From: Octopus sinensis
Taxonomy: Eukaryota
DNA: 64,000 bases
Reading direction: 5' to 3'
NCBI RefSeq assembly: GCF_006345805.1
Contig: NC_043014.1
Location: 31,620,001-31,684,000, forward strand
The stretch's first letter is position 1, and every line of letters starts with the position of its first letter. The notes beneath the pieces were generated by a model. It was not told the DNA's origin and did not search any database. It saw only the letters and a list, made by a program, of their open reading frames with translations. Below, one piece after another: positions 14,861-55,401 of the stretch. A program made the position numbers and the translations under genes.

Positions 14861-15352
14861 TATAATAATAAGGGTTTTTTGCAACAAGTTGCTTAATCAC
14901 ATACCGAAAATTTTAGAAATAGCAGCCAAAAGACTACTATTTCCTTTTACCACAAAAATAAGTCTCCACAGACAACAATATTTGTAACTCACATATGGCA
15001 AAAAAAGAAGAAAAATAATGAAATCACACAATCATGAAATCACCAAATCTTCATTAAATCACATCCCATGGTCTGAACCCAAAGACTGTGTGATTTCATT
15101 ATTTTTCTTCTTTTTTTGCCATATGTGAGTTACAAATATTGTTGTCTTTGGAGACTTATTTTTGTAGTAAAAGGAAATAGTAGTCTTTTGGCTGCTATTT
15201 CCAAAATTTTTGGTATATGGTTTAAGCAACTTGTTGCAAAAAACCCTTATTATTATAATTATATAAATTTTTATCGAATATGGTCCTTTTCCATACCGAA
15301 ATACTACTAGGTGAAATTTGTTGATTTTATTAAATTAATTATATTTTACCCT
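14861..15352. mobile_element. Long asymmetric inverted repeat, probably a Penelope-like pLTR remnant
   Basis: ~170-bp arms (14861-15030 vs 15087-15258) with a one-sided 3' extension, set in a (TA)n context. The same family end forms another inverted repeat at 44790-44990. Confidence 0.65.
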
Positions 15353-15552
15353 AGATAGATAGATAGATAGATAGGGAGGTAGATATATTTGTGTGTGTGT
15401 GTGTGTGTATGTATATATATATATATATATATATGTGATGATGATGATATATATTGTTAAATTTGGTGTTGGTCATTTTTTTTTCTTACCAAATAAGCAC
15501 ACACACTATATATTCATTCTTTACTTGTTTATTATTGTTCTTATTTTATCCA

Positions 15553-15598
15553 TTGTCTGGAAATCTTTCGTCACACATCTGTAACCTTTTCAGCAACA
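15553..15598 (-). ncRNA. Degenerate minimal hammerhead ribozyme candidate
   Basis: CUGAAAA-G-GUUAC-agaugu-GUGAC-GAAA-GAUU-UC-cagac. Stem II and GAAA are correct, but G8 is A and stem I is weak. Confidence 0.4.
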
Positions 15599-17077
15599 CT
15601 TCTATCCCACGTGTATCCTCCTGTTCTGTTTAGTCCATTAGTAAGTAAATATATAGTGCACGTCTTTATTTGGCAGCAAAAAAAATAAAAAGGATTATCC
15701 TAACTATAACAATATCTGTTTTGAACCACCACCAGTTGTAATACAAATGTGCTCAACCCACTGAGAAAACCTGGCCTGTTAGATACAGCTACTAAATCTT
15801 CATTAAATCATATCCCATGGTCTTAAAAATAAAACTTTTGATAAAGTAGTCCAAGAAATAATTACAATATCTGAAAGAAAGGATATTCATGTCTGACATG
15901 TCTTAATCATTGGTCTGTTTGATCAATAGATTGACCAAGGGCTAAACTACTTATCAGCAGTAGCATTGTTGTAACTATTTTGACCACCACCACTACTACC
16001 ACCATTACAAACCAATGAGAAGTCACTATGTGGTTACTTGATTTGCTGGAAGTAATAGCCAAATCTTCCTCAGACCATACCCTACTGTCTTAAAAAGAGC
16101 AAGATTGGGTTGGGTTTCCTGTAAATACTCTTTTACTTGTTTCAGTTACTGGGCTGTGGCCAAGCTGGGACACTACCTTGAAGGGAATTACATGATTATT
16201 TCAACTACAGGACTTAGCTTTTAAGTCTGGTACTTGCCTTTTTTTTCCAGTTGATGTTAACACAAAGACAGACACAAACACACACATGCGCTCACACACA
16301 CACACACACACACATACACACACTCCTGTAAATACATTCATACATACATGCAAACATATACATACATTTATATGTATGTACATATATGTGTGATTGTGTG
16401 AGAGAGAGAGGGGGGTTCTATACAGTTTCCATATCAATTTCACTCTGAAATTTTATAGTAGATGTCATAGAATAGGGCCAGACCCAAGACTTTATGGTTA
16501 TAGGATGAATTTCTTATCACACAGCCATACCTGTTCCTATAGAGAAAATGACAGGATGGTTATATCTGGAATGCCTTTGATCATTGATCTGTTCAATAAA
16601 TGTTGATTTGGGTGGGTCTAAACAGAAATAACAACCATCCACCATTACCATCACCATCACACTAGAACCACCATTGTCCTTCTCCATCTGCAGCTCAACC
16701 ATCAACATCATTGACAACATTATCACCACCACCACCACCACCATCACAACCACCACCACCACCACCACCACCACCACCACCACCACCACCACCACCACTG
16801 CTGCTGCTGCTATTATCTGCCATCATCAATACTGCTTACCCTTTGTTCCCCACCCTGTATTGAGGTAAACCATCTATTTCCAATCTACTGCTGCCTCTTT
16901 GGACCTCTCCCTGACCTCCACCCATCTCTAGGGATTAATCTGTTTTTCAGCAACGCATGATTCCTTTAAAATTCCATCATTAGATATTTATCAAATTATG
17001 ATAGTGGATCCAAGATTTTTCTCATTGTCGTCATCATCATCATCCTCACCACCACCACCACCACCACCACCACCACC

Positions 17078-17108
<31 letters not shown>

Positions 17109-17682
17109 CCATCATCATCATCATCTTCCTCCTCCTCTCTCCTCCTCCTCCCTCCACCATCATTCCCACCATGTATCCATAGTCTATCATTGTTATTCTT
17201 AGTGTTGTTTCAGTAGTAAGGCTGTGAGCTGGCAGAATCATAAGCATGCCAGGCAAAATGCTTAGCAGTATTTCGCCTGTCTACTACACATTCTGAGTTC
17301 AAATTCTGCCAAGGTTGACTTTACCCTTTAATCCTTTTGAGGTTGATAAAACAAAACAAGAACCAGTTGAGTACTGGGGTTGATGAAATTGACTTTCCCT
17401 TTCTCCAGAAGTTGCTGGCCTTGTGCCAAAATTTGAAACCAACAATATTTCAGTAGAAGAACGTGGTGAGCTAACAGAATCATCTGTGCAGTGGACAAAA
17501 TGCTTAGTGGCATTTCTTTTGGCAATATGTTCTGAGCTAAAATTCCTCCAAAATCAACTTTGCCTCTCATTCTTTCGGGGTCGATAAAATAAGGACCAGT
17601 TATGCATAATATCAATGTAATCAACTAGTCCCTTCCTCCAAAACCTCAGGACTCTGTGCCTGCAGTAGACTGGATTATTTAG

Positions 17683-18403
17683 CAGTGATTCTCAACCAGG
17701 GTCCATATAAGATTTTATTGCTAAAGTTTATGTGCAATAAATTGTGAGTAAGGCGGTAAGCTTGCAGAAAGGTTAGCACAGTGGGAGAAATGCTTAGTGG
17801 TATTTCGTCTTTCTTTACGTTCTGAGTTCAAAATCTGCTGAAGTAGACTTTACCTTTCAACCTTTTGGGGTTGATAAATTAAATACCTATTTCTTTACTA
17901 CCCACAAGGGGACACACAGAGAGGACAGACAAATGGATTAAGTCGATTATATCGACCCCAGTGCGTAACTGGTACTTATTTTATCGACCCCAAAAGGATG
18001 AAAGGCAAAGTCGACCTCGGCGGAATTTGAACTCAGAACGTAGCGGCAGATGAAATACTGCTAAGCATTTCACCCGGTCTGCTAACAATTCTGCCAGCTC
18101 GCCACCCTTGATAAATTAAATACCAGTTGTGTATTAAGGTCGATCTAATCGACTGGCCTGTTCTCCCAAAATTTCAGGCTATGTGCCCAGAGTAGAAAAG
18201 AATAAATTGGTTATTCTTCAACAGAATATTTTAACAATTCTTTTATGTGCAATTCCTAATATTATAAAAATTTATGCATTTCCTAATAATTATAAAAATT
18301 CAGTAGGATTTTTTTTTATATACATTGAATAGCTATGGTGGTCCAGAGGAGTAAAATAGGAATCAAAGGAGTCCATAGGAAAAAGAATGGGTGAGAACCA
18401 CTG
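17683..18403. mobile_element. hAT (Charlie-like) MITE containing two nested SINEs
   Basis: TIRs cagtgattctcaacc / ggtgagaaccactg. Inner SINE (+) at ~17750-18200 with TSD aataaattg. Innermost SINE B (-) at 17888-18107 with 17-bp TSD ttgataaattaaatacc. Confidence 0.8.
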
Positions 18404-19734
18404 ATTTAGGCAATGGATGACAGTATAGATAAAGTATCAGACATCTCTTTGGTTACCATCTCTTTGCAACCTTGTTTTTAACTTTTATGAAGGACAATCA
18501 AAAAGTACATACCTGTTGAATTCTTCTGGGTTCATCAATGCCTTTCATCTTTCAGGGTCAATGGAATAAAGTACCAGTCATATACTGAGTTAATTTGGTC
18601 AGCTACACACCTATGTACTGATCTTGAGGGGCTGCAGTTCATGAGAGATGACAAAAGGCCACAAGTGGTGGCAAGATGTTGTGCCACACAAAACCTGCTC
18701 AACCTCAATAGGCATTGTAAAGTGGACATAAACTGGTAATGGTGATGGTTATGATGATGACGATGATGATAATGACGGCAACGATGATGATGGAATAATG
18801 GTGATGATAATGATGACATTGTCAGTGGTGATTATGGTGTCACTGCCGCTGCTGTTGTTGTTGTTAAGCAACAAGACGGGTAAGGGTGATTAGGTGATGG
18901 TCTAGGGCTTAGGGGCGGGAGACCCCAGACCATGGAAAAAAAAAACTTTGGTTGGCTTGTAGTCGAGGGCTCTTCGTTGACGCCTGACACCACTGGGAGG
19001 TGGCCCTTGAAGTCGCTGGAAATGGAGATCTCCAGGTCCAAATTCTTGAACGGCTGCTGTTGCTGCTGCTACTGCTGTGATGACAAGGATGATGATGATG
19101 ATGATGATGAAGAGGACGAGAAGGAGGAGGAGGAAAACAATGATAAGAAGACGATGAGGATGATGAGGGTGTTGATGATGTTGATGATGACAACAACAAC
19201 AAACAATGATAATGATGATAACAATAATGAGGTTGATGATGAAAGTGGTAGTGGTGGCAGTGATGATTATGGCAGAAGTGGTGGTGGTGGTAGTATTAGT
19301 GATGGTGGTGGAGGTAGTGATAAGTTATCATTCAGGCATCTATCGTTATTATTGACATTGTTATTGTTATCAAGTTATTCAACAGTCTGTTATTCCACAA
19401 GGATGGAATCAAAATCGGATATGGCAGTTTCTATGTTTAATTAGTGTCTATACAGGCTATATATCTATGGAGCTGAAGGTGGAGAAACCATAGTTGGCCA
19501 GGACGATTGCATTTCAAACAGTAGACTGAAAGATTCATGGTTCAAATCTCATTACTATTGCTGCACTTTATTTGTAAACAAAGATGCTCTACTCTCAAAT
19601 GATTCCAGTCCACTTAACTGTAAATGGTTCTAGGAGTGAGATAGTTATCTAGATAAAGTTTTTTGGAGCATATGCTCATAGATAATGAGATCGAATATGA
19701 CACTGGCATTTTATTGTTCCTCTGAGAATAGTAT

Positions 19735-20147
19735 TTTACTCTCTTTTACTTGTGTCAGTCATTTGACCGTGGCCATGCTGGAGCACCGCCTTTAGTCGAG
19801 CAAATCGACCCTAGGACTTATTCTTTGTAAGCCTAGTACTTATTCTGTCGGTCTCTTTTTGCCGAACCACTAAGTTATGGGGATGTAAACACATCAGCAT
19901 CGGTTGTCAAGCGATGTTGGGGGGACAAACACAAACACACAAACATATACACACGTCCGTACATATATATATATATATATATACATATATATGATGGGTT
20001 TCTTTCAATTTCCGTCTAGCAAATCTACTCACAAGTCTTTGGTCGGCCTGAGACGATAGTAGAAGACACTTGCCCAAGGTGCCACGCAGTGGGACAGAAC
20101 CCAGAACCATGAGGTTCGTAAGCAAGATACTTACCACACAGCCACTA
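19735..20147 (-). mobile_element. tRNA-derived SINE family A
   Basis: Near-complete match to the family A blocks. Confidence 0.9.
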
Positions 20148-20966
20148 AAAAAAAGCACAACACACTGCCTAGTCTAGGAATTGAAACCACAATTTCAGCA
20201 CTCTAAGCACCAGGCCACGTGCCCTCATATATATAAATCCTCCTCCTCTTCTTTTGAAATATTCCATTATACACCTGTATCTCACATCTTACCTGCTAAA
20301 TGTGATGAAGCCAAAAGTAAGTTCATACACCTCTGGTTCAATGAATGTTCTTGAAGATATTCATGCTATAAGTAGTTGTTGTTTTGACATTAGTTCCATC
20401 TAAACTGAGTTATAATTTCGGAAAGAGCAGAGCAGGAACCAAACAGGGAGCTCTTCATAGTAATTCAATCTGCTAGAAATAGCAAGCAAATCTCTGCCAA
20501 AACACACTTTACTGTCTTAAAATGAAAGAACACATTTCTTCATGTAATCATACTTACAATTATGTTTGGAAAGATGGTAAGGTTATAACTGGAATGTATT
20601 TGGTTATAGGTGTGCTCAGTTAGAGCTCATCTGAGGCTATATCATAAAAACAGTGATCACCATAGTATCACCATTGAAGATTGTTTTTTTTTTTATTTGC
20701 ATTTGCTCTATTTTTTTTAGCAATTTCATATCTTTTGATAACTACAATTTGGATTGTATGAATTAACTCAGGTGACCCGTGCATTAGAAACCGACTATGT
20801 GGCACCTTAGACAAATATCTTCTGCTATAGTCTTGGGCCAACTAAAGTCTTGAGAGTGGATTTGGTAGACAGAAACTGAATGGAGCCTGTTGTGTGTGTA
20901 TGTATGTATATGTATATGTTATATATATATATGTATATATATATATCTATATATCTATATATATAT

Positions 20967-21004
<38 letters not shown>

Positions 21005-21005
<1 letters not shown>

Positions 21006-21692: not shown

Positions 21693-21694
21693 TC

Positions 21695-21892
21695 GGTAGC
21701 CATGATAAAACTCTGAGTTTCGGATGTTGGGGCGGAAACCCATGCCGCCATCTCTTTTTACCCCGACATCCGAAACTCAGAGTTTTATCATGGCTACCAG
21801 ATAATTGTCACATATTATATTTACAGATAAATTCTTCTATTTACATAATATTGAGGTCTCTTTCATTCTTTTGTTGTCTTACCATTTCTATG
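21695..21892 (+). mobile_element. Penelope-like inverted-repeat remnant with the 3' half of a hammerhead-like motif
   Basis: 38-bp inverted arms (21695-21732 / 21761-21798) plus 3' extension. The minus strand reads aga-gaug-gcgg..ccgcc..cauc-c-GAAA-CUC-agag, and the CUGA part is missing. Confidence 0.5.
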
Positions 21893-22619: not shown

Positions 22620-22660
<41 letters not shown>

Positions 22661-22663
<3 letters not shown>

Positions 22664-22980
22664 TATGTACATTATTTACATTCGACGGATAGTTGTCCTC
22701 ATCTTCTTTGTTGTTAACACAACGTTTTGGCTGATATACCCTCTAGCCTTCCTCAGATGTCTTGGGGAAATTTCCTTAGGAATTAGAAAATTACCTTAAT
22801 TAGGAAATTACCTTAGGAATGAGAACCCAGTTTCAAAATTTCCCCAAGACACCTGAAGAAGGCTGGAGGGTATATCAGCCGAAACATTGTGTTAATAACA
22901 AACAAGTTGAGGACAAATATCTGTCAAATGTAAATAATGTAAATAATGTACATAATTCCTCATCTCTTAAATATAAAAAC
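22661..22980 (+). mobile_element. Penelope-like element remnant: inverted pLTR arms each containing a hammerhead
   Basis: Arms 22661-22772 and 22837-22957 plus 3' extension, inserted at an (AAT)n tract. Same family at 40276-40434. Confidence 0.8.
22848..22893 (+). ncRNA. Minimal type I hammerhead ribozyme (second copy on minus strand, 22716-22761)
   Basis: gacac-CUGAAGA-a-GGCUG-gaggguauau-CAGCC-GAAA-C(A/G)-U-U-guguu. Stems I and II pair, and the stem III consensus ACGU is palindromic. Confidence 0.8.
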
Positions 22981-30938: not shown

Positions 30939-31489
30939 TTGTTTTATAAAAATATATTTTATTTGTTATTTCTGTTTTGGTTTATGTCTATCATTGTTTG
31001 AATTGCATAATAGTGGTTTTATCTCTAATTTATATTTTATATATTTATATTGTGAAATTTGATTTAATACTAAATTGAATTTTTCCCTGTAAGTTTTACA
31101 TTAAACTGAAGCATTACTCAATGCCATTTGTAGAGTAGATGAGTACATGTACTTCTACAAAAATATTACATATCGACTCTGTAGTCCCTGATGGTAATTA
31201 TTTGATCTTAACATATTGGGTTTTTAGACTATTTGTGTAAGCCATGTTTTCTTTTCCTTTTCTTTCTTTTTTTTGTTTATATTGCATGCTTTTGTTTTTC
31301 ACTCTGATGAAGATCCGTTGCCTTATTTCGAATACCCTATGAAGATAAAGAACTTTATTCTCCCAATTATTTATAGACTGCATTTTGGCAATCTGATCAG
31401 TATTAAAAAATAAGCTATAAATGTGGTTCAATCAATGAGTTGGTTAATCTGTGGTTTTCTCCATTTTCTAATTAGTTGCATTTATATAT

Positions 31490-38497: not shown

Positions 38498-38730
38498 CCT
38501 ATTTCTTTATTACCCATAAGGGGCTAAACACAGAGGGGACAAACAAGGACAGACATAGGTATTAAGTCGATTACATCGACCCCAGTGCGTAACTGGTACT
38601 TAATTTATCGACCTCGAAAGGATGAAAGGCAAAGTCGACCTCGGCGGAATTTGAACTCACAACGTAACGCAGACGAAATACCGCTAAGCATTTCGCCCGG
38701 CGCGCTAACGATTCTGCCAGCTCGCCGCCT
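38498..38730 (-). mobile_element. SINE family B monomer, young
   Basis: TSD ttacataata (38488-38497, 38731-38740). Intact CpG-rich head ggcggcgagctggcagaatcg and B box gagttcaaattc. Confidence 0.92.
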
Positions 38731-39999
38731 TTACATAATATCACTATGATTTTAAACTTGTCATGCACTGATTGATAGGCTACCCTGCATTTTTGTAAGG
38801 CAACAGACAACTGATCTAAAATGACATTGAATGTCCTGTATTTGAATTTTTCTCTTGCAGAAAGGACAACTTCAGAAGAGGTTGATGCTGGATTTACATC
38901 ATGTTTATTTCTCTTCCTTGGTCTATCTATTGTTGCTTTAAACTCTGGGTTTCCACACATGTCCCTGGCATCCAGCTCCAATTCTTCATACCTATCTTGG
39001 AGTGATTTCAGAAAGCTTTCCAAAGAATCAATAAGATCAATCACTTTATTCAAATCAACTTAACTCCTTGAAAAGCTTTATTTGTACTGTTAAACAATAC
39101 AAGAATTATAGGCTAAATCTTAGCCATCAGAGCAGTTTCAAGACAATCCATTTTGTCTGCCAATACCTGAGCTTCATATCTTGCTTCAGGTGTTTGTTCT
39201 AAGTCATCTTCAATATCTCTGAGTGCATTTTGGATGCAACTATATCCATCAATGAGGACTTCAGTAGCATTAGTTCTTGCTGACCAATGTGTTTCTGACA
39301 GGGACTTCAAAGTTAGTGCTCTTTTATTACTTTCCAACGATTTCTTTAAATTTGCCCCTCTGTGCATTGATGCAGAGAATGAGGTATATAACCTTTGTAT
39401 GAAACCAAAATAGCTAACAGCTTCAACACAGCAAGAAGCAGCAGCTTGTCCGACAAGATTTGAAAAAATGAGCAGCACAGGGAATGAAAACTGCAGCCAG
39501 ATTCTTTTCTTTGAGCCTGGCTTGCATTCCTGTATAATGACCAGACATATTACTGGCATTGTCATAGGACTGTCTCCTGCAGTCTTCAAAATTTAAACCC
39601 GTTTTTTCAGGAATTTTAAGAGTGAGGTGCAGCCAGTACTTCCACTTTGTGGGAACCAGTTTGTAGGAAAGTTAAAAACCTTTCTATTGATTTACCAGAA
39701 ATAACATTATGCACAGTAAGTTGTTAGTTGGTGTTGAGTCTACAGAAACAGAGAAATACTTGGCAGTTTTAAGTTCTGCAACAATATTATTTGCGACATA
39801 TTTTGCCAACCACAGAACAATTTCTTTGTGGATAGTAGGTGACATGTATGACTGCTTACCACTTCCAGGATTGCCAACTTTTTTCATGTGGCCCATTAGA
39901 AATAGATGAAATTGTGCTGTAAGTTCCATAATTCCTAGAAAATTCCCATTGTGTTTAGAGCCTACATCTAAATGCTAGACCACTCTCAGCTAAAGATAT

Positions 40000-40214
40000 T
40001 CTTTTCTACTCTACGCACAAGGCCTGAAATTTTTTGGGGAAGGGGCCACTTGATTAGATTGACTCTTGTATGCAACTGGTGCTTAATTTATCGACCACGA
40101 AAGGATGAAAGGCAAAGTCAACCTCAGCGGAATTTGAACTCAGAACGTAAAGACAGATGAAATACCGCTAAGCATTTCACCCAGCATGCTAACGTGTCTA
40201 CCAGCTCACTGCCT
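40000..40214 (-). mobile_element. SINE family B variant (different tail)
   Basis: Same head and body, flanked by tctcagcta...atatt direct repeats. Confidence 0.8.
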
Positions 40215-40275
40215 TCTCAGCTAGAAATATTGTCACAACCATAACATGACACAATACTTCTGTCCAGTATTTCTT

Positions 40276-40434
40276 CATTATTTACATTTGACGGATATTT
40301 TTCCTCGTCTTGTTTATTGTTAACACAAACAAAATGAGGATAAGTGTTAACAACAAACAAGATGAGGAGATATATCTGTCAAATGTAAATCATGTAAATA
40401 ATGTACATAATTTCTCATCTCTTAAATATAGAAC
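40276..40434 (+). mobile_element. Short Penelope-like inverted-repeat remnant (same family as 22661-22980)
   Basis: Shared sequence ...gtcaaatgtaaat.atgtaaataatgtacataatt..tcatctcttaaatatagaac, flanked by ccagta(t/c)ttctt direct repeats. Confidence 0.75.
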
Positions 40435-41724
40435 CAGTACTTCTTGTTTTCTTGGATTTGTTTTTCCAACTCCTTTTTAACATGAGAAAATTCCCTACAT
40501 AAAAGGTTGAACACAGAATCTCTGTGGCCTTGACTTTGTTCATGTGTTTTCATTTTCTCCTCTGCTTTTTCCCAAGTTGACTTGACATTAAGGTACAGCA
40601 AAAGCAATAAACTGTACCCTTTGATGAGCTGTACAGGAGCCACTTTCTGAAAAGCTGCTCACTTTTTTCCAGAATTGTATAAAACATTGAATTTTTATAA
40701 TCACGGTAGTTTATCTTCACCAGATTGATAATGGGGTCGAGATTCTGGGTAGGAGTCAGAATCATTTCTATTTTGACATATGGCTGATTTTTTCTGAAAG
40801 AACATGGACAAATACTTTTCTCTGGCAGAAAACCACTTGGCTGGGTCTGGATCCCATGATGTCGTTATACTATCCATGACAGTAGGAGATGATAGTTCTT
40901 TGTCTTCAATATTTTGAGGTGATATGTTCTTCGTGTTTTCTGCAGATGTACTTGGGAGTGTGACTGGTTCTTCAAAAGGGACATCTGGTACGGATTCTTC
41001 ATCATTAGCCTCTGAATTTTCTTTTTTCAAAGCAAAGAAAGATTCCGTAAGACGTGTCTTTGTTAATACAGCAGCATTTTCTTCACTTTTTTCTTCAGAA
41101 ATTTTTCTCTTTTGAGATCCAGACAGTTGAATTTTCTGTGGCACTCTTGGATATTCCCAGAATATAATATATAATCTGAATAGAAGCAAATGAAAATAAT
41201 TTCAAAAATAAAAGGAAGCTGGAACTGATAACAGCAATGTAGAATCACTTCATTTAATCCTGCTACAGGTATATTAAGACAGGCACTTTATGAATACCTG
41301 TTATTCTTATGTGTTTGGCAGATAAGTAGCCCTGCTGCCAAAGTTAATCAAAATTTAATAGAAAAGAGTTTGAGTGAAACAGCAAATCAAGGATTACAGA
41401 TTAAGGATTTGGTTTCCATAAAATTACTTTTCTTCAAAATTATGTTTCACTTGAAGTGAAATGAATAGGTGTCAGAATCACTTCAAAAGATATAATTTGA
41501 GAAGAAATTTTGTATTGCATAGATCTCTCTAGACTTTAAACTATCTGATGGCAATTTTTGAGCATATAACTTTTCTTTTACATTTGTTATGTTTGTGAAG
41601 GAAGAGGGTATTTTGGATTGCAATTGAGATGTTTTGCTATTCGTATGATCCTTGTTTGTTTGTTTTGACTTTTTTTCATTTTTTATACATCCACCTATTT
41701 AAGGTCAGGTACTTATGGTAGTAG

Positions 41725-43235
41725 ACTTAGATAACTTAGATAACTTAGATATGTTTCAACCAAAGATTGGTCCAGGCCATGTCTAACTTAATAGCACCAC
41801 CTGATAGGATTATTCGAATCCTGTTTAAGTCAAGTTTTGTTCAAGTAGTGAGTTCTTGTTGGGTGAGTTGTATCAAGTTTTGTTCAAGTAGTGAGTTCTT
41901 GTTGGGTGAGTTGTATCGAATTATGGGTGGCTTATCTGGTATTCTTTGAAGGAATCTATCCAGACTCCGTTTAAAGTTGATGGGATCCTTTTCCTCTTTG
42001 ATCTCCCTCGGGACAATGTTAAATAGGGCAGGGCCTGTTGAGGAAAAGAAATTATGTTGCAGTGTACATGTATGCTGTGATCTTGAATTGGGCAGGGGAC
42101 GTATGGCCCGTGGTCCCAGTCTTGGATGAACCTTGAAGCTAATGTTAAGGTCGTTAGGGCAAAGTTGGCGATATATTCTCCACATCGTACAAATGATGTA
42201 CCGCTCACGGCGACGCTGGAGGGAGTAAAGTTTCAAGGCTTTAAGGCGATCCCAATAATCGATAGCAGCCATGCCTTCAATTCTTTTAGTGAGTGTCCTC
42301 TGGGGTGACTCAATTCTGGAGATATTTTGTCTTCTATGGGGAGACCACAGTGAGCAGCAGTATTCAAGGTGTGGCCGTACAAAGGAGGAGAAAAGTGGTA
42401 TGATGACACCTTGTTCTCTGGACCGGAAAGTTCTTACGATCGAGGAACTCATCCTACGAGCTCTATCGACCTTCTTGTTGATGTGTGCACTCCAACTGAG
42501 GTCGTCATCAACAATTACACCCAGGTCTCTGATATTGTTAGAGACTGTGAGCGGTTCCCCTGAAGGAAGAGAGTATGGCTGTTTTACTGAGGAATTTCTT
42601 CCAAAATGCATCAGCTCAAATTTTCCCTCATTCAGTTGCATTTTGTTTCTGTCTGCCCATTGACTCACAGCATATAGATCAGACTGGAGTTGAGTTCGGT
42701 CTGCTTCTTCATTGACGATTTGCTGGAGCTTAGTGTCATCAGCAAATATTTTCACTTTGCAGTAATGTACAACACTGGAAAGGTCGTTTATGTAAATTAT
42801 GAAAAGTAGCAGACCCAAAACAGTCCCCTGGGGAACACCGCTGGTGACTTTTGCTGGGCTTGAGTGGACTCCATCAACTACAACATGTTGTGTTCTATTC
42901 ACCAGGAAATACTTAATCCAGTGTAGAACTTTTCCACGGATTCCAACATTTGCCAATTTTGAGAGTAGGATATTATGGTCTACCCTGTCGAACGCTTTAC
43001 TGAAGTCAAGATATATGACGTCAGAGTTTGAACCTGTTCCGAAGGCTTTGAGTACATCTTCAATGTGGTGTAAGAGCTGTGTTAGACAGTCCCTGCCACA
43101 GCGAAAGCCATGCTGATTTGCATTTAGGAGTTTGTGGGTCTCCAGGAAGTCAGCTATCCTTGATCTTAACACTCTTTCAAACACTTTAATGATGTGGGAG
43201 GTGAGATTGGGTGATAGTTGACTGCGAGGGATCTG
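41725..43235 (-). mobile_element. CR1-like LINE, 5'-truncated, with (ATCTAAGTT)n tail
   Basis: RT ORF, short 3' UTR and a tandem 9-mer tail at 41725-41752. Confidence 0.9.
41841..43184 (-). CDS. Reverse transcriptase domain of the CR1-like LINE ORF2 (5'-truncated, 447 aa open)
   Basis: QHGFR, YLDFSKAFDRVDH, SGVPQGTVLG, FADDTK, DLGV, VRPHLEYC..WSP, LYSLQRRRER. Confidence 0.92.
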   Translation of the reverse strand: MFERVLRSRIADFLETHKLLNANQHGFRCGRDCLTQLLHHIEDVLKAFGTGSNSDVIYLDFSKAFDRVDHNILLSKLANVGIRGKVLHWIKYFLVNRTQHVVVDGVHSSPAKVTSGVPQGTVLGLLLFIIYINDLSSVVHYCKVKIFADDTKLQQIVNEEADRTQLQSDLYAVSQWADRNKMQLNEGKFELMHFGRNSSVKQPYSLPSGEPLTVSNNIRDLGVIVDDDLSWSAHINKKVDRARRMSSSIVRTFRSREQGVIIPLFSSFVRPHLEYCCSLWSPHRRQNISRIESPQRTLTKRIEGMAAIDYWDRLKALKLYSLQRRRERYIICTMWRIYRQLCPNDLNISFKVHPRLGPRAIRPLPNSRSQHTCTLQHNFFSSTGPALFNIVPREIKEEKDPINFKRSLDRFLQRIPDKPPIIRYNSPNKNSLLEQNLIQLTQQELTT

Positions 43236-44694
43236 TTTCCCTGTTCGCTAAAATAACTAATGTTTGGCAGAAATAGTTAAAAATTGGTGGGTATAGACAG
43301 TCTGAAAGAACAATTAGCAAAACTAGAAGGAAAAGTTGCAGGATAGCACCAGCAACAGGGACAAATTCTAAACCACTGTCGTCTGTGAAATTTTTGCAAA
43401 AGTGGAAATGATATGGTAAGCAACATAATACAAAATTATACTTTGTAAAAAACAACATGAAAATAAGTTATAACAAGCTGTAGTTACATTAAAAAAATAA
43501 AGACAGAAACATTTTAAAAATATTTTTTTAAAAATTGAAACATAATAGAAAAAATCATAAGTTATATTCAAAAAATTAAGGCGATCTTTTGTTTTACAGC
43601 CATATTAGGTAAAATATAAACGAAAATGAAACCAACAATAATGGAGAATGGCATAAAAATAACTTGACAATCCTGAATGACAAAAATGAATAGGTTAATG
43701 TAAAGAAGTAGGGTATTATAAATTTCTTATTTTTTTATAATTTTTCAATGACATCATTTTGTTAACTTATTAAAGTAGCATCGGAAGAAAATAAGACAGT
43801 ATAAATCAAGATAATCAAGTCAGTTTTTGTACATTCCCCATTGCTGTTGGTTTCATTTTATTGTAAGCATTAGCAGTGAAACATGAGTTGTGACTACAGA
43901 TGATGACATTTCTCCTACATGCCACTAAATCAAAATGAACTCTTGATAACAACATATCTTCATTGCAAGAGCCCTCTCTCACCAACAAAACTCTTTCCCT
44001 AAAAATTTTAGGATTTGGGAAAGGGATGAAAAATTTTTTTATATTTTTGCCGAACCATATAGGATACAGCGTGTAGAACACAAATTCACAAAATTTTCTG
44101 AAAATACCAAAAAAAAAACGTCATGACTAATTAAATGGTGGGCCAGATGTTGAAGAAGTATTTTTCTGGGACAGAATAGCTGTCCCACACTTTGTTATTT
44201 TATTGTATTCCACATTCTGAAACACATTCAAGTCGCATTAAAACAAATACAAATCTCTTCACCTTACTCCTTAAGTCGTACCTCTCACAAAATTTTGTTT
44301 TTGTTTTATTTTCATTTATGTAAATTTATAAAAAATTCAAGAGATTTGGCTGTTATTTCTAGCATGTGGAGAGACCTAGGCTTAACTTTATGCACTGGTT
44401 GAAAACCACCTAACAAAAATTCTGAGATAGATACATTCGACTAAAAATTCTTCAAGGTGGTACCCCAGCATTACTGCAGTCTAATGATTTAACAAGTACA
44501 AAGGATAAAAAAAAACAAAAAAAAAAAATTAAATATTCGCCGTGGCTGTGTGGTAAGAAGCTTGTTTCCCAACCACATGGTTCCCGGTTCAGTCCCACTG
44601 TTCGGCACCTTGGACAAGTGTCTTCACCTGTAGTTTTGGTCCGACCAAAGCCTTGAAAGTGGATTGAGAGTAGACGGAAACTGAAAGAAGCCCG

Positions 44695-44791
<97 letters not shown>

Positions 44792-44994
44792 TAAAGGGTG
44801 AAATATAATTAATTTAATGAAATCAATAAATTTCACCTAGTAGTATTTCGGTATGGAAAAGGACCATATTCAGTAAAAATTTATATAATTATAATAATAA
44901 GGGTTTTTTGCAACAAGTTGCTTAAACCACTTTGCGGTATGTGGTTTAAGCAACTTGTTGCAAAAAACCCTTATTATTATAATTATATATATAT

Positions 44995-45682
44995 ATAGAA
45001 GTAAATATATGGCACAATGAAGTACTGATATTTACTGGAAAATAGCGAATGTAAGACAAATTTTTTTCAAGTTTGTTGCACACACGCATTTTTGCTAGTA
45101 CATACGCGGTGAAGCTATACATTTGCGTCGTATTTTTCACATTCGCTATTTTCCAGTAAATATCGGTACTTCGTTGTGCCATATATTTACTTCTATGTAT
45201 AATTTTCCCTCATGGGCTATTCTTTACTGGAAAGCAATACTCTCGTATTGCATTACTATTTTTATTGAAACTTCTTCACTGTTCTCGTTCTGTCACCATT
45301 TTGGCGTTTCAGTCGAGTGTATTGGCATTGATGTGGCAACATCTGAAATGTTGTCGAGGTATATGTTGGCTGATGAAGATAAATCAAGTATATGTGTGCA
45401 GACATATCTTGAAAAATCTGAAACCGGTACCACATTATCCCTTTCTAGGTATTTCATCTTTCAGATGTTCTCCCTGGAGGTAAGACAAGTTTGTTGCACA
45501 CACGCATTTTTGCTAGTACATACGCGGTGAAGCTATACATTAGCGTCGTATTTATTACGTTCGCTATTTTCCAGTAAATATCGGTACTTCGTTGTGCCAT
45601 ATATTTACTTCTATGTATAATTTTCCCTCACGGGCTATTCTTTACTGGAAAGCAATACTCTCGTATTGCATTACTATTTTTA
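44995..45682 (+). mobile_element. Non-coding Penelope-like/retrozyme-like element: 418-nt unit with 197-bp terminal direct repeat and 5' inverted segment
   Basis: 45068-45264 is repeated at 45486-45682. 44995-45052 is the reverse complement of 45139-45196. One hammerhead in the unique part; flanked by (TA)n. Confidence 0.85.
45363..45435 (+). ncRNA. Minimal type I hammerhead ribozyme
   Basis: auguugg-CUGAUGA(45370-76)-AGAU-[ucaag.auaugu/acauau.cuuga hairpin]-AUCU-GAAA(45420-23)-CCGG-U-A-ccacau. Predicted cleavage after A45429. Confidence 0.88.
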
Positions 45683-47024
45683 TATATATATGTATGTATG
45701 TACATATTTGTATATGTGTATCTGTGTTTGTCCCTCTACCATCACCTGACAACTGATGTTGGTGTGTTTATGTCCCCGTAACTCAGCAAAAGAGACCAAT
45801 ACAATACGTACAAGGCTTACAAAGAATTAGTCCTGGGGTCGATTTCTTCGACTAAAGTCGGTGCTCTAGTATGGCTGCATTCAAATCACTTAAACAAGTA
45901 AAAGATAAACTACATAAATGTTTTTTACTTTTCTCTGCTGTTTCACTAGCACCATGCTTTTTTTAGGGGACTAGAGTCTGAAACATGGAACAGTCTGTTT
46001 CTTTTTATCACTATATACATTCAAACACACACACACACATGCTTTTGGGAACTTGTGTCACTAAAGTAGAAAAATCTGCTTTTCTTTTGCTTTTTTTTAA
46101 AATTCTATAAACTGTTGTCGCTAAAGTGGAGAAAATCTTTGGTTATTTATCACTACAGAGAATCCATTACATTTTTTAAGCAGTTCAGATCTTTATAATT
46201 TGAAAGGCAGCCTCTTCATGCAAGATTATTGGGAAGTGGAAGGGCCCCTCTGAATTTAGTGCACCATATCCTTCATAAAAAAGTAGCTCTCAATATTAAT
46301 GGGGCGGGTCATTGTCGAGGGTGGTCCAGAATAATTGCACCTTAAGCACCCCCATAAATGTGGACCTTATCCCAGTCATCTCTTTTCAAATGATGCTTTT
46401 TGTACCCAATCTCTTAGGCACCATACAATTCACTACACTCAGCATTTCCTCTTCAGAATCTCGTGTGGATTTGTCTTGATTATACAATTTGTCTAACTGG
46501 ATGTTCATAAGGAGGCTACTAGGTCCGCTAGAAATAGCAGCCAAATCTTGCTCACTACATAAATGAATTAACACAAACTACATGAATTAACACAAAATAC
46601 AGAGCAACGGAAATTAAAAAAAATGTTTATTGATTTGGTAGTCCAGGCTTAAATAGCTGCCATTTGACGTATTTTACCTTTTTTCTACAAGTGGTCACTT
46701 GACCATACCCGTTCATGCCAATTGGATGTTTTAAGTCATCGAAACAGACTGCTTGCCAGACTAGCAGATGTGTGGTCTGTTTTAAGCCAACAGATGGCTA
46801 TAAAAAAAGAATTTGTTTTGGGATAGCCGGAGAGGAGAGAATTATTACTGGAGATATTTAACGCCATGCTTTGTGTTTACCCCTCACACATCACTGGGAA
46901 ATAATGTATTTTTCTTAACAGAACTATTTGTACCTTTGGAACACAAGTGCTACTATATTCTTTTTTGTTAGTTTTGTCATGTAATGTCTCACATCTTGAA
47001 ATACTTGCAAGTTGTATTTTTACT

Positions 47025-47272: not shown

Positions 47273-47469
47273 GTTTTTTTCGCTTGATATGTTTCAGAAA
47301 TTAAACATTTTAATATACAAAATACAGTAAATACTTCACATTATTACATATATTATACATTAATGCAAAAAATATTGTGTTTATTAACTATCTTCAAAAT
47401 TATCACAGCAGCAATGGAAAGTTGAATGCCAACTTGCTAAGGCAGTTTCAAAATTCTATCAAGACCTAA

Positions 47470-48713: not shown

Positions 48714-48873
48714 CGGAGATGTACTTGCATAGCAAGTGATTTGATCTGAGATCGTGTGCTGGAACGAAAACAATTTCAGCGTGGAAGGTGTTGTAAACTT
48801 AAATGTTGAAGTGAATTGAACGGCTTTTGTGTGTTTCTTAAATGGCTTACAAACACCTTCCACGCGGCAATTG

Positions 48874-48876
<3 letters not shown>
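48714..48876. mobile_element. Inverted-structure remnant of the Penelope-like family also at 54100-54346
   Basis: ggagatgtacttgcatagcaagtga...gcgtggaaggtgtt followed by an inverted segment of the same family. Confidence 0.7.
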
Positions 48877-48912
<36 letters not shown>

Positions 48913-48915
<3 letters not shown>

Positions 48916-49766: not shown

Positions 49767-49872
49767 TGTGTGTGAATATATATATATATATATATATATG
49801 CACAAGCACACGCACACTCTCACACACACACACACAATCACAAACACACATATGTGTATGTATATACATGCA

Positions 49873-49904
<32 letters not shown>

Positions 49905-50901
49905 CATACATACATACATACATGTGTGAGTGTCTGTGTATATATACATCCAACTGAATCATATGGATACAAGGATGATTATATAGTTATGGAGTTTATG
50001 TTTTGTTTGACTACTTTCCCAATGTATGATACTTCAGATGAATATCTTCAACTATAACCTCACACTCTTGGGAGTGTGAATGGGTTGACAGAAACTACAG
50101 AGTGTGAATGGTTTGACAGAAATTTGTCATATACATACATGTATATATAGTGAGACATAGCAAGGGTTAAGGAAATATAGTCCATCATCTTATTCCTCAG
50201 TCCATACAGAACCTGGTTAATAGAATACTTAGGTAAGAGAATCAGAATCCATATTTCTTTAATTCATAGCACATTCCATAAAAACTGAAAATCCAAGGTA
50301 ATTCACCTGCATTATTCACAGATTATAATATTAAACAGACTAAAGAATGAAGATGTAAGTATTACATATCTTTATCAAAGGTTGCAATCATTTCAGTTAG
50401 TTAGAGAACTGTTTCATCAATTTGTATGTAAATCCATAAAATAATTAATTTATTAATGCATGAGGTTGCAACCAGCCACCTTGTCAGATCATTGAAAGTT
50501 CGTCATCATCATCATCATCATGTATCATAAGTTTTTACAGTGCATTGATAGCACTACAATGAAAGTCTTCCTGATTTAGCAGTTCTCCCATTAGATGAAG
50601 CTTTATTCTGTTACTTTATTTTGAGTTTCCCATAATGTTTGCTTGACAAGAGATATTCGGGTGGTTTATCATTACCTTTCCCAACTGGATCACTGTTGGC
50701 CGACCAGGAACACATCTGCATTTCGATGGTCTTGTTTTTACTCTTTCTGGGTGTCCAGATGGCTACCTTGCAGGAGTATTAAGCTACTCAAATGGGGAAG
50801 CCAGTTTAGCTACAGATCACTCAACCATGAAATAGGTAGTAATGGTTCACATGGTACCAGAAGCAGATTACATCAGCCTGTGATGAGATCCCTGATCTGG
50901 C

Positions 50902-50946
<45 letters not shown>

Positions 50947-51176
50947 TACTGTTTCAAGTCCAAGGACTTGAGATACTAATATCCAGGAGATATTCTACAA
51001 TCTAATGTCCTTTAATATATTTGTTGGAAATTCTCAAAATTATACTTAGCATATTAACTGCCATGGCCTGGTACTGGAGCTTACTGGTGATGCTATGTAT
51101 TTTGTGTGCTATTGCTGTCAGTGCAATATTAGAATATATCATAATTAAACTTTAATATTTAACACTTAATATTCAA

Positions 51177-51396
51177 CCCTTCAGCATTTATACCAGCATA
51201 TTTGACCAAAATATTCTACCTGTTTTATGTTCAAACAGGCCAGATCCAGGCTCTCTCACCTACCCTACAATGTCATTGTAAAAATAAACAGTGACATCAT
51301 AGAAATCTTGAAGCTACAAGATAATGCATGATTAGTTCAAAACAATGTGAATAAATAAGTATTACACTTGACTGAGTAATCTGGATACTGGTAGGT
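51177..51396. mobile_element. Old piggyBac-type MITE (related partial copy at ~26010-26165)
   Basis: ccctt.agcatt terminus, degenerate TTAA flanks, internal atattctacctgttttatgttcaaac shared with 26090-26130 (reverse). Confidence 0.55.
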
Positions 51397-54281
51397 TAAT
51401 ATTTAGCATTCATGTTTTTTAATATTTAGTATTTAGTACTCATAATGTGGCAAGATGGCAGAATTGTTAGAACACCAAGCAAATTGTTAGTACACCAAAA
51501 TGCTTAGTGACGTTTGTCTGTCTTCACGTTTTGAGTTCAAATTCGGGATTGACTTTTCCTTTCAACCTTTTGGGAATGATTAAATAAGTACCAGTTGAAC
51601 ATTGGGGTTTGTGTAATCAACTTTTCCTCTACCCTAAAATTACTGGCCTTGTGCCAAAACTTGAAACCAATATTTAGCACTCATGTTATTTAAATATCCT
51701 CAAAACCATGCCAAAATTGCAAAATAAAATATTTTCTCAGATTACGAGAAAGGGCCCCCCCACTGGTGCATACAGCAGTTGTATGAATTTTGTGATTAAC
51801 CACCAGTGGTATATGTGGTGATTAACATGTTAAAGTTACTAGGGTATAATTCTGAGTGATGTGATGTTGTAGAGTATCCCATGGACAATACTGTCTTGGG
51901 TCCTTTGATTCATAGGGGTAGTTATCCAGTTTCCATGGCATACAAGGGACCAAGATCACAACATACCTCTGAGTAGGATACCAGTCTATTGCAGGGTTAA
52001 TCTTTTACAGCTAAGTGAGCTAGAGCAACATGAAATGAAATGCTTTGCTCAAGAATAAAATGCATTGCTTGGTCCGGGAATCGAAACCACAGTCTTGCGA
52101 TCATGAGTGCAACACCCTAACGACTAAGCTATGTGCCTTCACTGCAGAATATAAGAAATGTAAATTAAACAGTAAGTGTTCACCCCACCTGGGAGATATT
52201 TCAGTGGATGGATAATGAAGATAAGGTATGTGTCAGATTACTTTCTCTGATCTTGTACAAGTCCTGGAAAGCACCTCAGTCCTTACATGTCAAAAGGTTG
52301 TCAAGTTTATTGTATGTATATCCAGTGAAAGAGAGAAAAGAATTTATGAGAGAAACCAGAATTTCAAAGAAATGGCAGTTTATGGCTACAATCTCAACAT
52401 TGTTAATAAATGGGGGAAAATTAATATAGAGATGAGGATTGAAAGGAATAAAACAAATAAGTGTGTGTGTGTGTGTAAATGTGTGTGAAGGGAAGTTAGA
52501 ATGCTAATGATTCTGCCAGCTTAATGCTTTATACTGGCATTAATAATCCTTTCTTATTATAGGCACAAAGCCTGAAATTTAGTGGGGAGGGTGGTAGGTG
52601 ATTACATTGACCCCAGTGATCAGCTGGTACTCATTTTACCATCCCCAAAAGAATTAAAGGCAAAGTTGACCCCAGCAGAATTTGAGGGAACCCAGCTGTA
52701 GAAACCGTGCCAAAACAGACATAGGGCCTCGGCAGCTCTTCAGCGGGCCAGCTCCTGCAAAAACCATCTAATCTATTCCAGCATGGAAAACAGGCATTAA
52801 ATGATGATGAGGATGATGATGATGATAAATGTAAAAACAGGTGTTAAATGATGATGATGATGATGATGAACATAAAGATAGAGAAAATACCACTAAGCAT
52901 TTTGTCCAGCATGCAAACAATTCTGCCAGCTCACTGCCTTTATGTAAGCACTAATGGTCCTTTCTTCTATAGGCACAAGGCCTGAAATTTTGGGGGAGGG
53001 GGACCAGTTGATTATATTGACCTCAGTGCATAACTGGTACTTATTTTATCGACCCTGAAAGGATGAAATGCAAAGTCGACCTCAGTGGAATTTGAACTCA
53101 AAACGTAAAGATGGATGAAATGCCACTTAGCATTATGCCAGCATGCAAACAGTCCTGCCAGCTCATCACCTTTATGCAGGCATTAATAATAATACAGAAA
53201 AGAACATGCAAATAAAAACTCACACTGCAAAACCCCCACCCCACATGCATATACACACACATACATATGCATACACATACAGAATTTGTACATGATTAAC
53301 TTTACTGATGTTCTTGCATGTATGAAACCTCATTCATTCAATTCCAGTTATTTGACATCCATCATTTCCAGTATGACTTAAAACAAAGCAACACCTAATT
53401 CTTTTGTTATTCACATTTTCTTTTCTTTCTCTGTGCTTATTTCTTCTTTTAACCTACTGGAGAAGGAGCTGATTCTCTAAACATCAAGGACACTTTCATG
53501 TCTCAATCTGACACTCTGAGAAAAGACATATAATAACCAACCCTCTCAGCATTAATCTGGAGATTTAAGGACAAAAACATCACCAACAAATCAAATAGAA
53601 GATCCTTTCTAAGATCAAACATTATATTGATGAACCAAAAAGACGTTCTGTATGCTTGTTTGCAAAACTGTCTCTTTTAAAAGAATATAAAAACCTCAAG
53701 AGACTGTGTGTAAATATTAGGATCAAGTTTTTCTTCATGTCTGCATTTCACAAAAAGATCTTAGTGGTAATTTAAGACACCACTAGACACATCATAGCAC
53801 ATTTCAGTGTTGGTTAATGAAAATTTTCATATCCATAAGACAGTGTGCAGTCAATGATCTCCTCTTGATATCACTGTTTTTTTCTAAATACACAAGCTTA
53901 TTCAAACATTGATTGCTTGAATGCTTTTACTACGCCATCTTGTAATTACTAGCTTGGTAAATGGCAAAATAAATTAATATATTTTAGCCAGTAAACACTA
54001 GATAGCTATTTCACAAGGCTTTTTGTGGTTTTTATTATAATAATATATATTTGTATAAAGTTTAATTTATCACCACTTAAAAGTGGATGTGTTATTTATC
54101 ATGAGAATCTCTCATATGGTTTTGTGGTATATATGAACATTCTTGGAGATGTACTTGCATAGCAAGTGACCTGATCTGAGATCGTGTGCAGGAATGAAAA
54201 CAATTGCAGCATGGAAGGTGTTTATAAGCCATTTAAGAAACACATAAAAACCATTAGATTCACTTCAGCATTTAAATTTAA

Positions 54282-54332
54282 TTTGCCAAAATATTTTCAT
54301 TGCTTTGAGACTGCGACCTGTTCACTGACAAA
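54282..54332 (-). ncRNA. Hammerhead ribozyme variant with G3-C8 core
   Basis: uuuguca-GUGAACA-g-GUCGC-agucucaaa-GCAAU-GAAA-AUAU-U-U-uggcaaa. 7-bp stem I, palindromic stem III, stem II 3' strand explicable by CpG decay of GCGAC. Confidence 0.65.
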
Positions 54333-55401
54333 ATTCCGTGCTGCATCTTGTTTACACCACTAATGGCAGACAATCACTGCCATCTCCACTGCCAGGAATA
54401 CCAGATTATTTGATTTCAGTCTTCTTCAGCTTTGTCAATGGTAGATATAGGACTGCTGGAAATAGCAGTAACTGCCCCACTTGCAATATGCATAGAGTCA
54501 CAGAGCCCAGTCAGTCACTGGTGTCACTAAAAGTCAGTGAGCTTATTAAAAAAATGATTAAAATGGTCAGAACAGTAATCAATACCAAAAGGTAAAATTT
54601 ATCTCTCACTTAAATGGGGTTGTTGTGTTAGAATACAGAATACTGCGTTATTTATTTTGAGAGAATCTCTCATATGGTTTTGTGGTGCATCTACGCACCC
54701 TTCTCTACACTGGTAGTGGGACACAATCACCACCAGGACTACCGGATCATGTGATTTCGACCTTCTTCACCTTGCCAATGGTAGATACCTGACTGCTGGA
54801 AATAGCAGTAACTGAGATTTTCCAATCTTCCATGAAAGCATATCTGGTCGTGGAGAATGTTACCTTACTTGGAAACAAGAGTGGGTTGGCAACAAGAAGA
54901 ACATTGGCTGTAGGAAATCAGTTTCAGCAAATTCCATCCACTCCTTGCAAGCTTGGAAAAATGGATGTTAAATGGTGAAAATGATGATAGCAATATACAT
55001 GTTTGTGAATGTGTATGTATATGCAGCTATTAATAATGCTTTCTGACTTTGGCCCAAGACCAGCAATTTTGTGGGGAGGGTATAAATTGCTTTTTTACAT
55101 CAATTTCAGTGTTCAACTGGTACTTTTTTTTATAGTCTCTGAAAAGAGAAAAGCGAAGTTGTCCTAAGCAGGATTTGAGCTCAGAACATAAGGAGCCAGA
55201 AGAAATGGCACTAAAGATTTTGTTGACTGCACTAACATTTCTGCAAGCTCACCACTTTATGCAGGAATTGATAATAATACTAAGAACATACAAATAAAAT
55301 CTCACAGTGCAAAAAACAAAAACATATGAATACATACCACATCCCCCTTGCCACATATGAATAAATATCCTCACCCTTAACACACAAATACACGACCCTA
55401 T

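Follow-up and report, generated by a model that had tools for sequence, protein, structure and literature searches.

Minimal hammerhead ribozymes of metazoan Penelope-like elements are reportedly the subject of a 2017 study by Lunse, Weinberg and Breaker. Motifs of this kind were located in the pseudo-LTRs of such elements by Cervera and de la Pena (2014; PMC4209133), and the portion of that paper covered here describes type I hammerheads with a short stem I, an extra base between positions 9 and 10.1, and a loopless palindromic helix III, which occur as several families per genome, as thousands of lone copies and as close opposite-strand pairs, with U3:A8 as a variant of the core pair. That there are many Penelope families, each with a palindromic minimal hammerhead, is already known. 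In the Poseidon element of Anolis (Frangieh et al., 2024; PMC11167929), insertions into AT-rich targets hold whole hammerheads, and the tail at their 3' end was explained by two starts of reverse transcription. Non-LTR retrozymes (PMC7229834), for which a Penelope origin has been proposed (bioRxiv 10.64898/2026.07.22.740005), are ORF-less units with one type I hammerhead, and in the Sm-alpha-type SINE-like repeats of Schistosoma a promoter is followed by the hammerhead (PMC6765202).

We analyzed a 64,000-nt stretch of the Octopus sinensis genome (the window; NC_043014.1, positions 31,620,001 to 31,684,000), in which the motifs are genuine minimal hammerheads of the kind known from Penelope-like elements, most of them worn (Table 1). 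They and their families share the features listed above from PMC4209133, the extra base being seen in families B, C, D, H and K. They depart from the covered portion of that paper in the G3:C8 core pair of one family (family C), which is absent from its 56-row alignment and from the text examined, in a larger share of 6-8 nt palindromes, and in number, since we estimate ~4e4 intact motifs and 1e5 or more overall for this genome, compared to 2,000-9,000 copies there; the alignment rows examined include no cephalopod. Very probably, the window holds the 5'-truncated and mostly decayed ends of several Penelope-like families with minimal hammerheads, whose palindrome and 3:8 pair have drifted along lineages.

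Table 1. Hammerhead-bearing and related repeat features of the window (positions counted from its first nucleotide)
Feature	Position	Strand	Remarks
Inverted pair, further (TA)n-ended repeat family	14861..15337, also 44790-44997		Two sites, one family
Family D hammerhead	15555..15598	-	Motif 15593-15560; G8 -> A in window copy
Family E remnant and inverted twin	21695..21798	-	Helix III ACUCAGAGU; cut off inside first core box
Family B inverted twin	22664..22785	-	Adjoins (AAT)n; C3 at 22756
Family B 3' end, 5'-truncated	22809..22970	+	Tail of RT + GIY-YIG element
Hammerhead B	22848-22893	+	C3 at 22853; core motif 22853-22888, C3:G8; stems and core well formed
Family F copy	31270..31440	+	CUGAUGA and long stem II kept; site noted earlier as 31300-31410
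Inverted pair of family B 3' pieces	40276..40420		Coreless
Family A inverted partner, short	44990-45054		Opposite to A copy
Family A copy, ~1.5 turns of 426-nt unit	45051..45683	+	Ends at second of two 3' end sites, then (TA)n
Hammerhead A, intact minimal type I	45361..45436	+	C3 at 45370, C3:G8; long stem II
Inverted pair of family C 3' pieces	48714..48874		Coreless; adjoins (TA)n
Family C short copy, 204 nt	54145..54348	-	Hammerhead 54332-54282

A link to Penelope-like elements had been suggested by a sequence-only reading of the window, and the position of the motifs bears it out for five families. Hammerheads B and C are found downstream of ORFs with reverse transcriptase (RT) and GIY-YIG domains, at 0.2-1.5 kb from the stop codon, and those of other families follow GIY-YIG ORFs (K, 16/16; the sister family of C, 20/23; H, 2/3). 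Translations of the B and C parents, all from broken copies, have the layout of an EN+ Penelope-like ORF (RT, then a C-terminal GIY-YIG), with YADD-type and Y-G-T motifs and tblastn matches to PF01541-selected proteins; the B parent matched the RVT_1 domain (Pfam; E 3e-6), and the C parent was missed by Pfam. A CX2-5CxxC linker, which is a feature of Neptune and Nematis (PMC8557442), is found in the C parent and is lacking in the B parent. In an endonuclease tree of 153 columns with long branches and no reference clade sequences, the only strong fork was the one joining C and its sister (100/98). The signature of EN+ Penelope-like elements (PMC8557442) is also present, i.e., 5' truncation, an inverted upstream partner, an optional tail and a (TA)n target. 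Families A, B and C all have the minimal-hammerhead core (NUGANNA, GAAA, 3:8 pair, NUH triplet) and a helix III that is palindromic and forms no stable loop. The extra base between 9 and 10.1, together with G10.1-C11.1, occurs in B, C, D, H and K; stem II of A opens with A-U instead.

The same reading had named three well-formed motifs with the palindromes CCGG, ACGU and AUAU. These do represent three families; A alone has an intact copy in the window. Its core reads CUGAUGA / long stem II / GAA-ACCGGU-A at 45370-45429 (+), with ACCGGU at 45423-45428 (CCGG, 45424-45427), and cleavage is predicted after A45429. Hammerhead B has sound stems and core, but its palindrome reads ACAU at 22884-22887, a decayed form of the family state ACGU, which was present in 7/10 family B copies from a sample of 100 fixed 10-kb stretches of the genome (1 Mb in total, the basis of our family counts); the remaining copies show CpG decay. 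Conversely, its inverted twin keeps ACGU at 22722-22725 (-) but has G12 changed to A. In the C copy, AAUAUU (54295-54290, -; AUAU, 54294-54291) and the core pair G3 (54325):C8 (54320) are in place in a motif at 54325-54289 (-), but two CpG-type changes break stem II, and the copy does not fold as a hammerhead (z +1.1), whereas another copy of the family does (z -2.9). Four weaker motifs had also been listed, and three proved to be damaged copies of families D, E and F. The palindrome of D is AGAUUU, G-U pairs included; F has a hammerhead-like fold with the palindrome ACGGCCGU and GUA instead of GAA, and in its window copy a deletion of 50 nt has removed the palindrome. The fourth site, 50030-50105, was rejected, as its first box is broken and no relative was found in 1.84 Mb of loci. 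All four reported inverted repeats are real: 40276 belongs to B, 48714 to C, and 14861 and 44790 to one further family, in which no valid hammerhead core was found.

Family C departs from the described motifs in its core pair. G3:C8 replaces C3:G8 in 48/53 copies, and the sister family has U3:A8. The full motif followed C ORF ends in 8/30 loci within the 1.5 kb examined, and also in loci L039, L058 and L178, the motif in L178 being intact. Among relatives of the C parent on metagenome contigs, several of which end early, the motif was found in 5/15 loci, three with C3:G8, two with U3:A8 and none of the five with G3:C8. The cleavage triplet of family C is UUU, a weak one for hammerheads. This triplet favors the reading that G3:C8 of family C (and GUA of F) is an inactive or weakened form, amplified since the ribozyme is unneeded for copying. 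Likewise, in vitro insertion was unaffected by hammerhead mutants, the C3G/G8C change restored cleavage only partly (PMC11167929), and family F, with its altered A13, appears to have spread all the same. However, G3:C8 takes a double change by which pairing is regained; the rest of the core is kept, along with the inserted base and G10.1-C11.1; the stems covary with the sister family, with compensatory differences at 3:8 and in both stems (I and II); and two C subfamilies retain the same core and stem despite a different loop II. We consider an inactive or weakened variant possible but doubtful, and the G3:C8 hammerhead is predicted still to cut. In Poseidon this pair is an engineered, partly active rescue (PMC11167929), whereas it is the natural state of the high-copy family C; no natural G3:C8 hammerhead was found in the literature searched, which did not cover Lunse et al. 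(2017).

Within the 3' tail of the family B element, 30 nt behind the stop codon, lies a tRNA-like segment. It came next after the ORF end in 27/30 loci, and the hammerhead was present in 22/30. Short B copies begin at this segment (17/29 matches covering the head start at -20..+6 of the head), and near their 5' end, with the spacing of a tRNA, are what we take by inspection against consensus boxes to be an A box and a B box. A small GC hairpin also lies at the head, and an RT stall there would be another possible origin of these starts. Searches for tRNA fold or homology in the head gave 0 genes by ARAGORN in eight loci and no Rfam tRNA match in L067. An A/B-box segment upstream of a hammerhead recalls the Sm-alpha repeats (PMC6765202), with the differences that here the segment belongs to a protein-coding Penelope-like element, in its 3' tail, and that the hammerhead is of the minimal kind; a literature search found no Penelope-borne SINE. 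We offer tentatively, and as a single joint proposal, that family C is the first natural active G3:C8 hammerhead family, kept through amplification to more than ten thousand copies, so that sister lineages in one genome use C3:G8, U3:A8 and G3:C8, and that the family B tail has its own polymerase III promoter, which spawns a hammerhead-bearing SINE.

Family A is non-coding. Each of 47 distinct copies is built of the 426-nt unit alone, with no ORF; no element ORF lies upstream, and no coding parent was found. A GIY-YIG ORF beside one copy (locus L030) was rejected as the parent since it lies on the opposite strand and belongs to the element into which A inserted. Copies are 291-999 nt long, and 31/47 exceed one unit in a sample biased towards long copies. 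Their 3' ends fall at unit position 283 (20 copies) or 347 (15 copies); this 64-nt tail compares with 30-40 nt in Poseidon, with which the insertions also share the AT-rich target and the whole hammerhead (PMC11167929). Two 3' ends, a (TA)n target and an inverted 5' partner together give A a Penelope-type end signature. At the same time, A is a more-than-unit or tandem non-coding repeat with one type I hammerhead, as retrozymes are, with an ORF-less unit of ~0.4 kb (426 nt versus 170-400 nt). It differs from them in its minimal motif without canonical loop contacts, in its inverted partners and in its two 3' ends, and whereas the hallmark of retrozymes is abundant linear and circular monomer RNA, family A is known here from DNA copies. 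We also surveyed contigs from sequencing runs, four presumed to be RNA and one apparently DNA (type guessed, with no RNA run on record). Such contigs carry no information on cut ends, strand or level. Family A was not over-represented relative to family C in the four presumed-RNA runs, and in 2/4 of them the depth showed a step close to the predicted cut; neither observation was counted as evidence.

The same reading had further suggested that the palindrome could act as a family-specific dimerization code that prevents cross-pairing. Palindromes are indeed conserved within families (ACCGGU in 30/31 copies of A, AAUAUU in 48/53 of C), the 16 families use 12 different ones, a more varied set than that of the published alignment as far as covered, most rows of which have a 4-nt palindrome (PMC4209133), and full pairing in register is impossible for most combinations of two families. 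Against this, ACCGGU, ACGU, ACGCGU and ACAAUUGU are each common to two families, i.e., four shared pairs versus 2.3 expected for random palindromes of the same lengths; since the probability of no sharing by chance is 0.06, sharing is not avoided. The families were split by blast, and some of the sharers (N1, N2) may be distantly related. These two match in helix III and, both ways, in stem I (6/8 and 4/4 pairs), and stem I of J with J2 and of A with H matches one way; A/H and B/B2 have a common palindrome without a full match in stem I. Between sister lineages (K/H, C/sister), palindromes agree in some cases and differ in others, with no pattern. Moreover, stem I also forms between two copies in the dimer model, so pairing specificity cannot depend on the palindrome alone, and dimer partners are thought to be neighbors in one tandem transcript, hence of the same family (PMC6765202). 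Homodimer co-folding with ViennaRNA gave a double hammerhead for H only and other pairings for A, B and C, and was not used. We judge a selected code to be highly unlikely.

The suggestion that self-cleaving motifs abound in this genome held for predicted motifs, of a kind already described for other animals: the 1 Mb sample contained 16 intact motifs, a clear excess over 0-3 in each of 20 local dinucleotide shuffles, and 0 in its reversed sequence. Beside this sample the density in the window is ordinary, and in the window alone the excess over chance is marginal (one match by a strict descriptor, equaled in 6/100 shuffles; two by a relaxed one, equaled in 4/100). A bulge-free descriptor gave 0 matches in the window and the relaxed one detected A and B only; site C was spotted by hand and then confirmed through its repeat family. 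From 14/17 seeded families, the sample yielded 53 copies per Mb. The reported association with (TA)n or (AAT)n tracts was seen in these copies (microsatellite within 250 bp in 39/53, versus 32% of random places), but a microsatellite adjoined only 6/12 window sites tested. Chance matches in AT-rich, repeat-rich DNA might be argued from the window shuffles, from site 50030, which looks like chance, and from an Rfam scan of the window with no hammerhead among the matches listed (150 of 234; microsatellite hairpins), but the excess in the sample, 778 exact genome matches of the C motif (reversed control, 0) and the fixed position behind element ORFs make this exceedingly improbable, and for A, B, C, D and E it is already refuted by the family evidence.

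If the window does hold worn Penelope-like ends, cleavage of the source element's RNA by the hammerhead would likely have required a dimer, in which two hammerheads pair via the helix III palindrome and stem I. Judging from the literature, the element protein would nick AT-rich DNA, and reverse transcription would start at two internal sites and usually stop early or flip. Its template would be uncut RNA, which would account for whole motifs in the genome by tens of thousands; once inserted, these would decay at CpG sites. The palindrome and the 3:8 pair (C3:G8, U3:A8 and, in family C, G3:C8) would drift along lineages without being selected to differ, and if cross-family dimers are blocked at all, this would simply follow from divergence.

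As a rule, hammerhead searches require C3 and G8 or admit U3:A8, and would miss a natural G3:C8 family of such size. With family C, nature offers a way to ask whether position 8 of the 3:8 pair has to be a purine. In addition, matched natural pairs (N1/N2; A/H and B/B2; pairs with neither palindrome nor stem I shared) ease the comparison of homo- and heterodimers in the role of the ribozyme.

A sample of 100 stretches of 10 kb (1 Mb), taken at round coordinates from 22 large contigs, was searched with a descriptor of the minimal type I hammerhead in which any Watson-Crick 3:8 pair was permitted. Strict motifs numbered 16, compared with 0-3 in 20 local dinucleotide shuffles and 0 in the reversed sequence; about one of the 16 would be expected by chance. 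Abundance beyond that of shuffled sequence, as proposed by the sequence-only reading, is thus borne out. With 17 family seeds, 53 copies from 14 families were found in the same 1 Mb, and extrapolation from this sample to the 2.72-Gb genome gives ~4e4 intact and ~1.4e5 total motifs. Since the window holds 6 family copies where 3.4 are expected (P 0.13), and part of the seeds were derived from the window itself, its density is ordinary. The supposed link to microsatellites held in the sample, where 39 of 53 copies had (TA)n or (AAT)n within 250 bp versus 32% of random places, but such tracts did not adjoin most sites in the window (6 of 12 tested).

The window is repeat-rich, and its 29 frames of at least 130 aa gave no evident host exon; one element protein has its best named relative in Octopus vulgaris (53%). 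A LINE-type reverse transcriptase (RT) frame of 468 aa lies at 41841-43247 (-) (RVT_1, E 3.7e-26), and frames at 38571-41201 (-), which we take to resemble pieces of DNA transposase, had no Pfam match. Because the remaining listed sites are decayed, coreless or without relatives, only one of the listed motifs, that of family A, is intact. Motif B does not read ACGU as had been supposed, although ACGU is kept in its inverted twin, where G12 is lost. The window copy of C adopts no hammerhead fold (fold z +1.1, versus -2.9 for a copy that folds, at locus L178), since two CpG-type changes break its stem II. Three of the weaker sites are decayed members of repeat families, whereas that at 50030 had no relative in 1.84 Mb of loci; the four asymmetric inverted repeats exist but none has a valid core.

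Hammerhead motifs and related repeats in the window
Feature	Position	Strand	Remarks
Hammerhead A	45370	+	ACCGGU; descriptor match
Hammerhead B	22853	+	Descriptor match with one helix III mismatch; palindrome ACAU
Hammerhead C	G3 at 54325, C8 at 54320	-	AAUAUU, U17
Family D, decayed member	15593		G8 changed to A
Family E, decayed member	21695-21798		Truncated within first box
Family F, decayed member	31300 (31270-31440)		Palindrome deleted
Inverted repeats	40276 and 48714		Ends of B and C, respectively; core absent
Inverted repeats	14861-15337 and 44790-44997		One further family, (TA)n-ended, with inverted partners; no valid core

The further family in the last row carries CGAAA and a short hairpin, with a valid first box absent, and may be a decayed hammerhead family; a family A copy directly adjoins its repeat at 44790-44997. 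Family F (also at loci L342-L352) has the hammerhead layout, an 8-nt palindrome, ACGGCCGU, and AGUA in place of GAA. Of 11 other copies, 4 retain the whole palindrome and most of the rest are CpG-decayed; the family is either a natural A13U variant or was amplified from a dead motif.

The suspected connection with Penelope-like elements is supported, as the motifs of B, C, K, H and the sister family of C stand behind GIY-YIG open reading frames (ORFs). Long copies of B have the ORF end upstream, and the RT part of the parent matches RVT_1. Among the 30 best B ORF-end loci, one of which is the query's own place, a tRNA-like segment follows in 27 and the hammerhead in 22. Three copies of C extend across a low-complexity tail to reach a different GIY-YIG ORF 0.8-1.5 kb upstream; within 1.5 kb downstream of 30 C ORF ends, the full motif was found at 8, a partial motif at 1 and flank only at 1. 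The motif follows the ORF in 16/16 cases for K (U3:A8, ACAUGU), 2/3 for H (U3:A8, ACCGGU) and 20/23 for the sister of C. Family A comprises 47 distinct copies (60 loci) made solely of a 426-nt unit (length 291-999 nt), and no element ORF continues upstream of these copies. Their 5' ends are scattered, whereas most 3' ends fall at two sites (20 and 15 copies) separated by 64 nt; (TA)n stands behind and an inverted partner often in front. Such insertion marks are listed for Penelope-like elements (PMC8557442), and two RT start sites explain a double 3' end in PMC11167929.

Several GIY-YIG matches fall within open frames 775-883 aa long, among them recurrent frames of 781 aa (e.g., L197, L198, C6:12733272, C6:12759897, C19:35627265), pointing to a Penelope-like family that is young and may still be active. 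A related element on metagenome contig Ga0310342_100051111 (L358) forms a complete pseudo-LTR arrangement, each end carrying the same U3:A8 hammerhead with 3.4 kb between the two. The 5' ends of short family C copies (window 54145-54348 (-); L031-L060) lie at a hot spot, GAGAUG, which can pair with CAUCUC at the 3' end of the element; the cDNA might fold back on its own start and thereby end reverse transcription.

The stem III palindrome had been suggested to act as a family-specific dimerisation code preventing cross-pairing. It is conserved within families, in 30/31 copies of A, 48/53 of C and 16/19 of K (sets biased towards the query) and in 7/10 of B in an unbiased sample, where the remaining copies show CpG decay. 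The code itself, judged from these sequences, is not supported: ACCGGU, ACGU, ACGCGU and ACAAUUGU each occurred twice among 16 family representatives, i.e., 4 shared pairs against 2.3 for random palindromes of equal lengths (D was entered as a variant copy, which leaves the count unaffected). On our reading of the dimer model, the H17 strand, bearing the predicted cut position, and the stem I 3' arm would be supplied by the partner, and therefore stem I must match as well. Among palindrome sharers it does so both ways for N1/N2, one way for J/J2 and A/H, and not at all for B/B2. Distant relatedness among some of the sharers is possible, which would agree with inheritance and not with selection for difference. 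Most rows across phyla in a published alignment carry ACGU (PMC4209133 supplement).

The position, family conservation and end structure of the motifs are established here. Metazoan minimal hammerheads are described as inactive monomers and weakly active dimers (PMC4209133); that of an Anolis element needs the element protein and is dispensable for insertion in vitro, the main template being uncut RNA (PMC11167929). Copies in this genome would have arisen from uncut RNA; they would be mostly lone and decayed and form no population of active ribozymes. A would have been copied by a coding partner from a tandem or circular template.

Family C has the 3:8 core pair as G3:C8 in 48 of 53 copies. 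One exact 43-letter form had 778 genome matches (reversed control, 0); another base at position 3 occurred at only 172 sites, and among the 100 listed C8 was kept in 96 and C3:G8 found in none. The sister family, joined to C at 100/98 in a 10-row endonuclease tree, has U3:A8 and AAUU in 21 of 30 loci, with stem I CUA/UAG versus UCA/UGA in C and stem II GUUGC/GCAAC versus GUCGC/GCGAC. Because relatives on metagenome contigs show C3:G8 (3 of 15 loci) or U3:A8 (2), G3:C8 looks derived. On contig G000:C1, a second C subfamily differs in loop II with core and stem unchanged, and another repeat also matches a loose G3:C8 pattern. Lunse et al. 2017 is said to comprise about 150,000 variants. Its variant lists, bioRxiv supplements and other PMC8557442 files may contain natural G3:C8 rows; none was found in the literature searched, including one PMC8557442 supplementary file. 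U3:A8 was reported as the first natural covariation (PMC3088659), and G3:C8 appears as an engineered, partly active variant in PMC11167929, PMC8495972 and PMC3884650.

The segment in the B tail, ~30 nt behind the ORF stop (L221-L250), shows by inspection A and B boxes spaced as in a tRNA, and behind them comes an (AAT)n tract that varies in length; neither ARAGORN nor Rfam called a tRNA there. Among hammerhead-selected loci, 17 of 29 head-covering matches begin within -20 to +6 of its first G; in the 1 Mb sample 4 of 8 begin at -7 to -10 and none further upstream. These starts may reflect transcription by polymerase III that begins within the tail. Alternatively, RT may stall at a small GC hairpin, on which the short copies are often centred as an inverted pair; that family C shows its 5' hot spot without A/B boxes keeps stalling plausible.

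PMC4209133 already describes genomes with numerous families, the palindromic helix III, dimers and U3:A8; 16 families with over 6,000 motifs are reported in a coral (PMC7229834), and ORF-less units derived from Penelope ends in bioRxiv 10.64898/2026.07.22.740005. The hammerhead observation is real and largely known; family C with its G3:C8 pair and the tRNA-like segment in the B tail would be modest new variants of putative activity.
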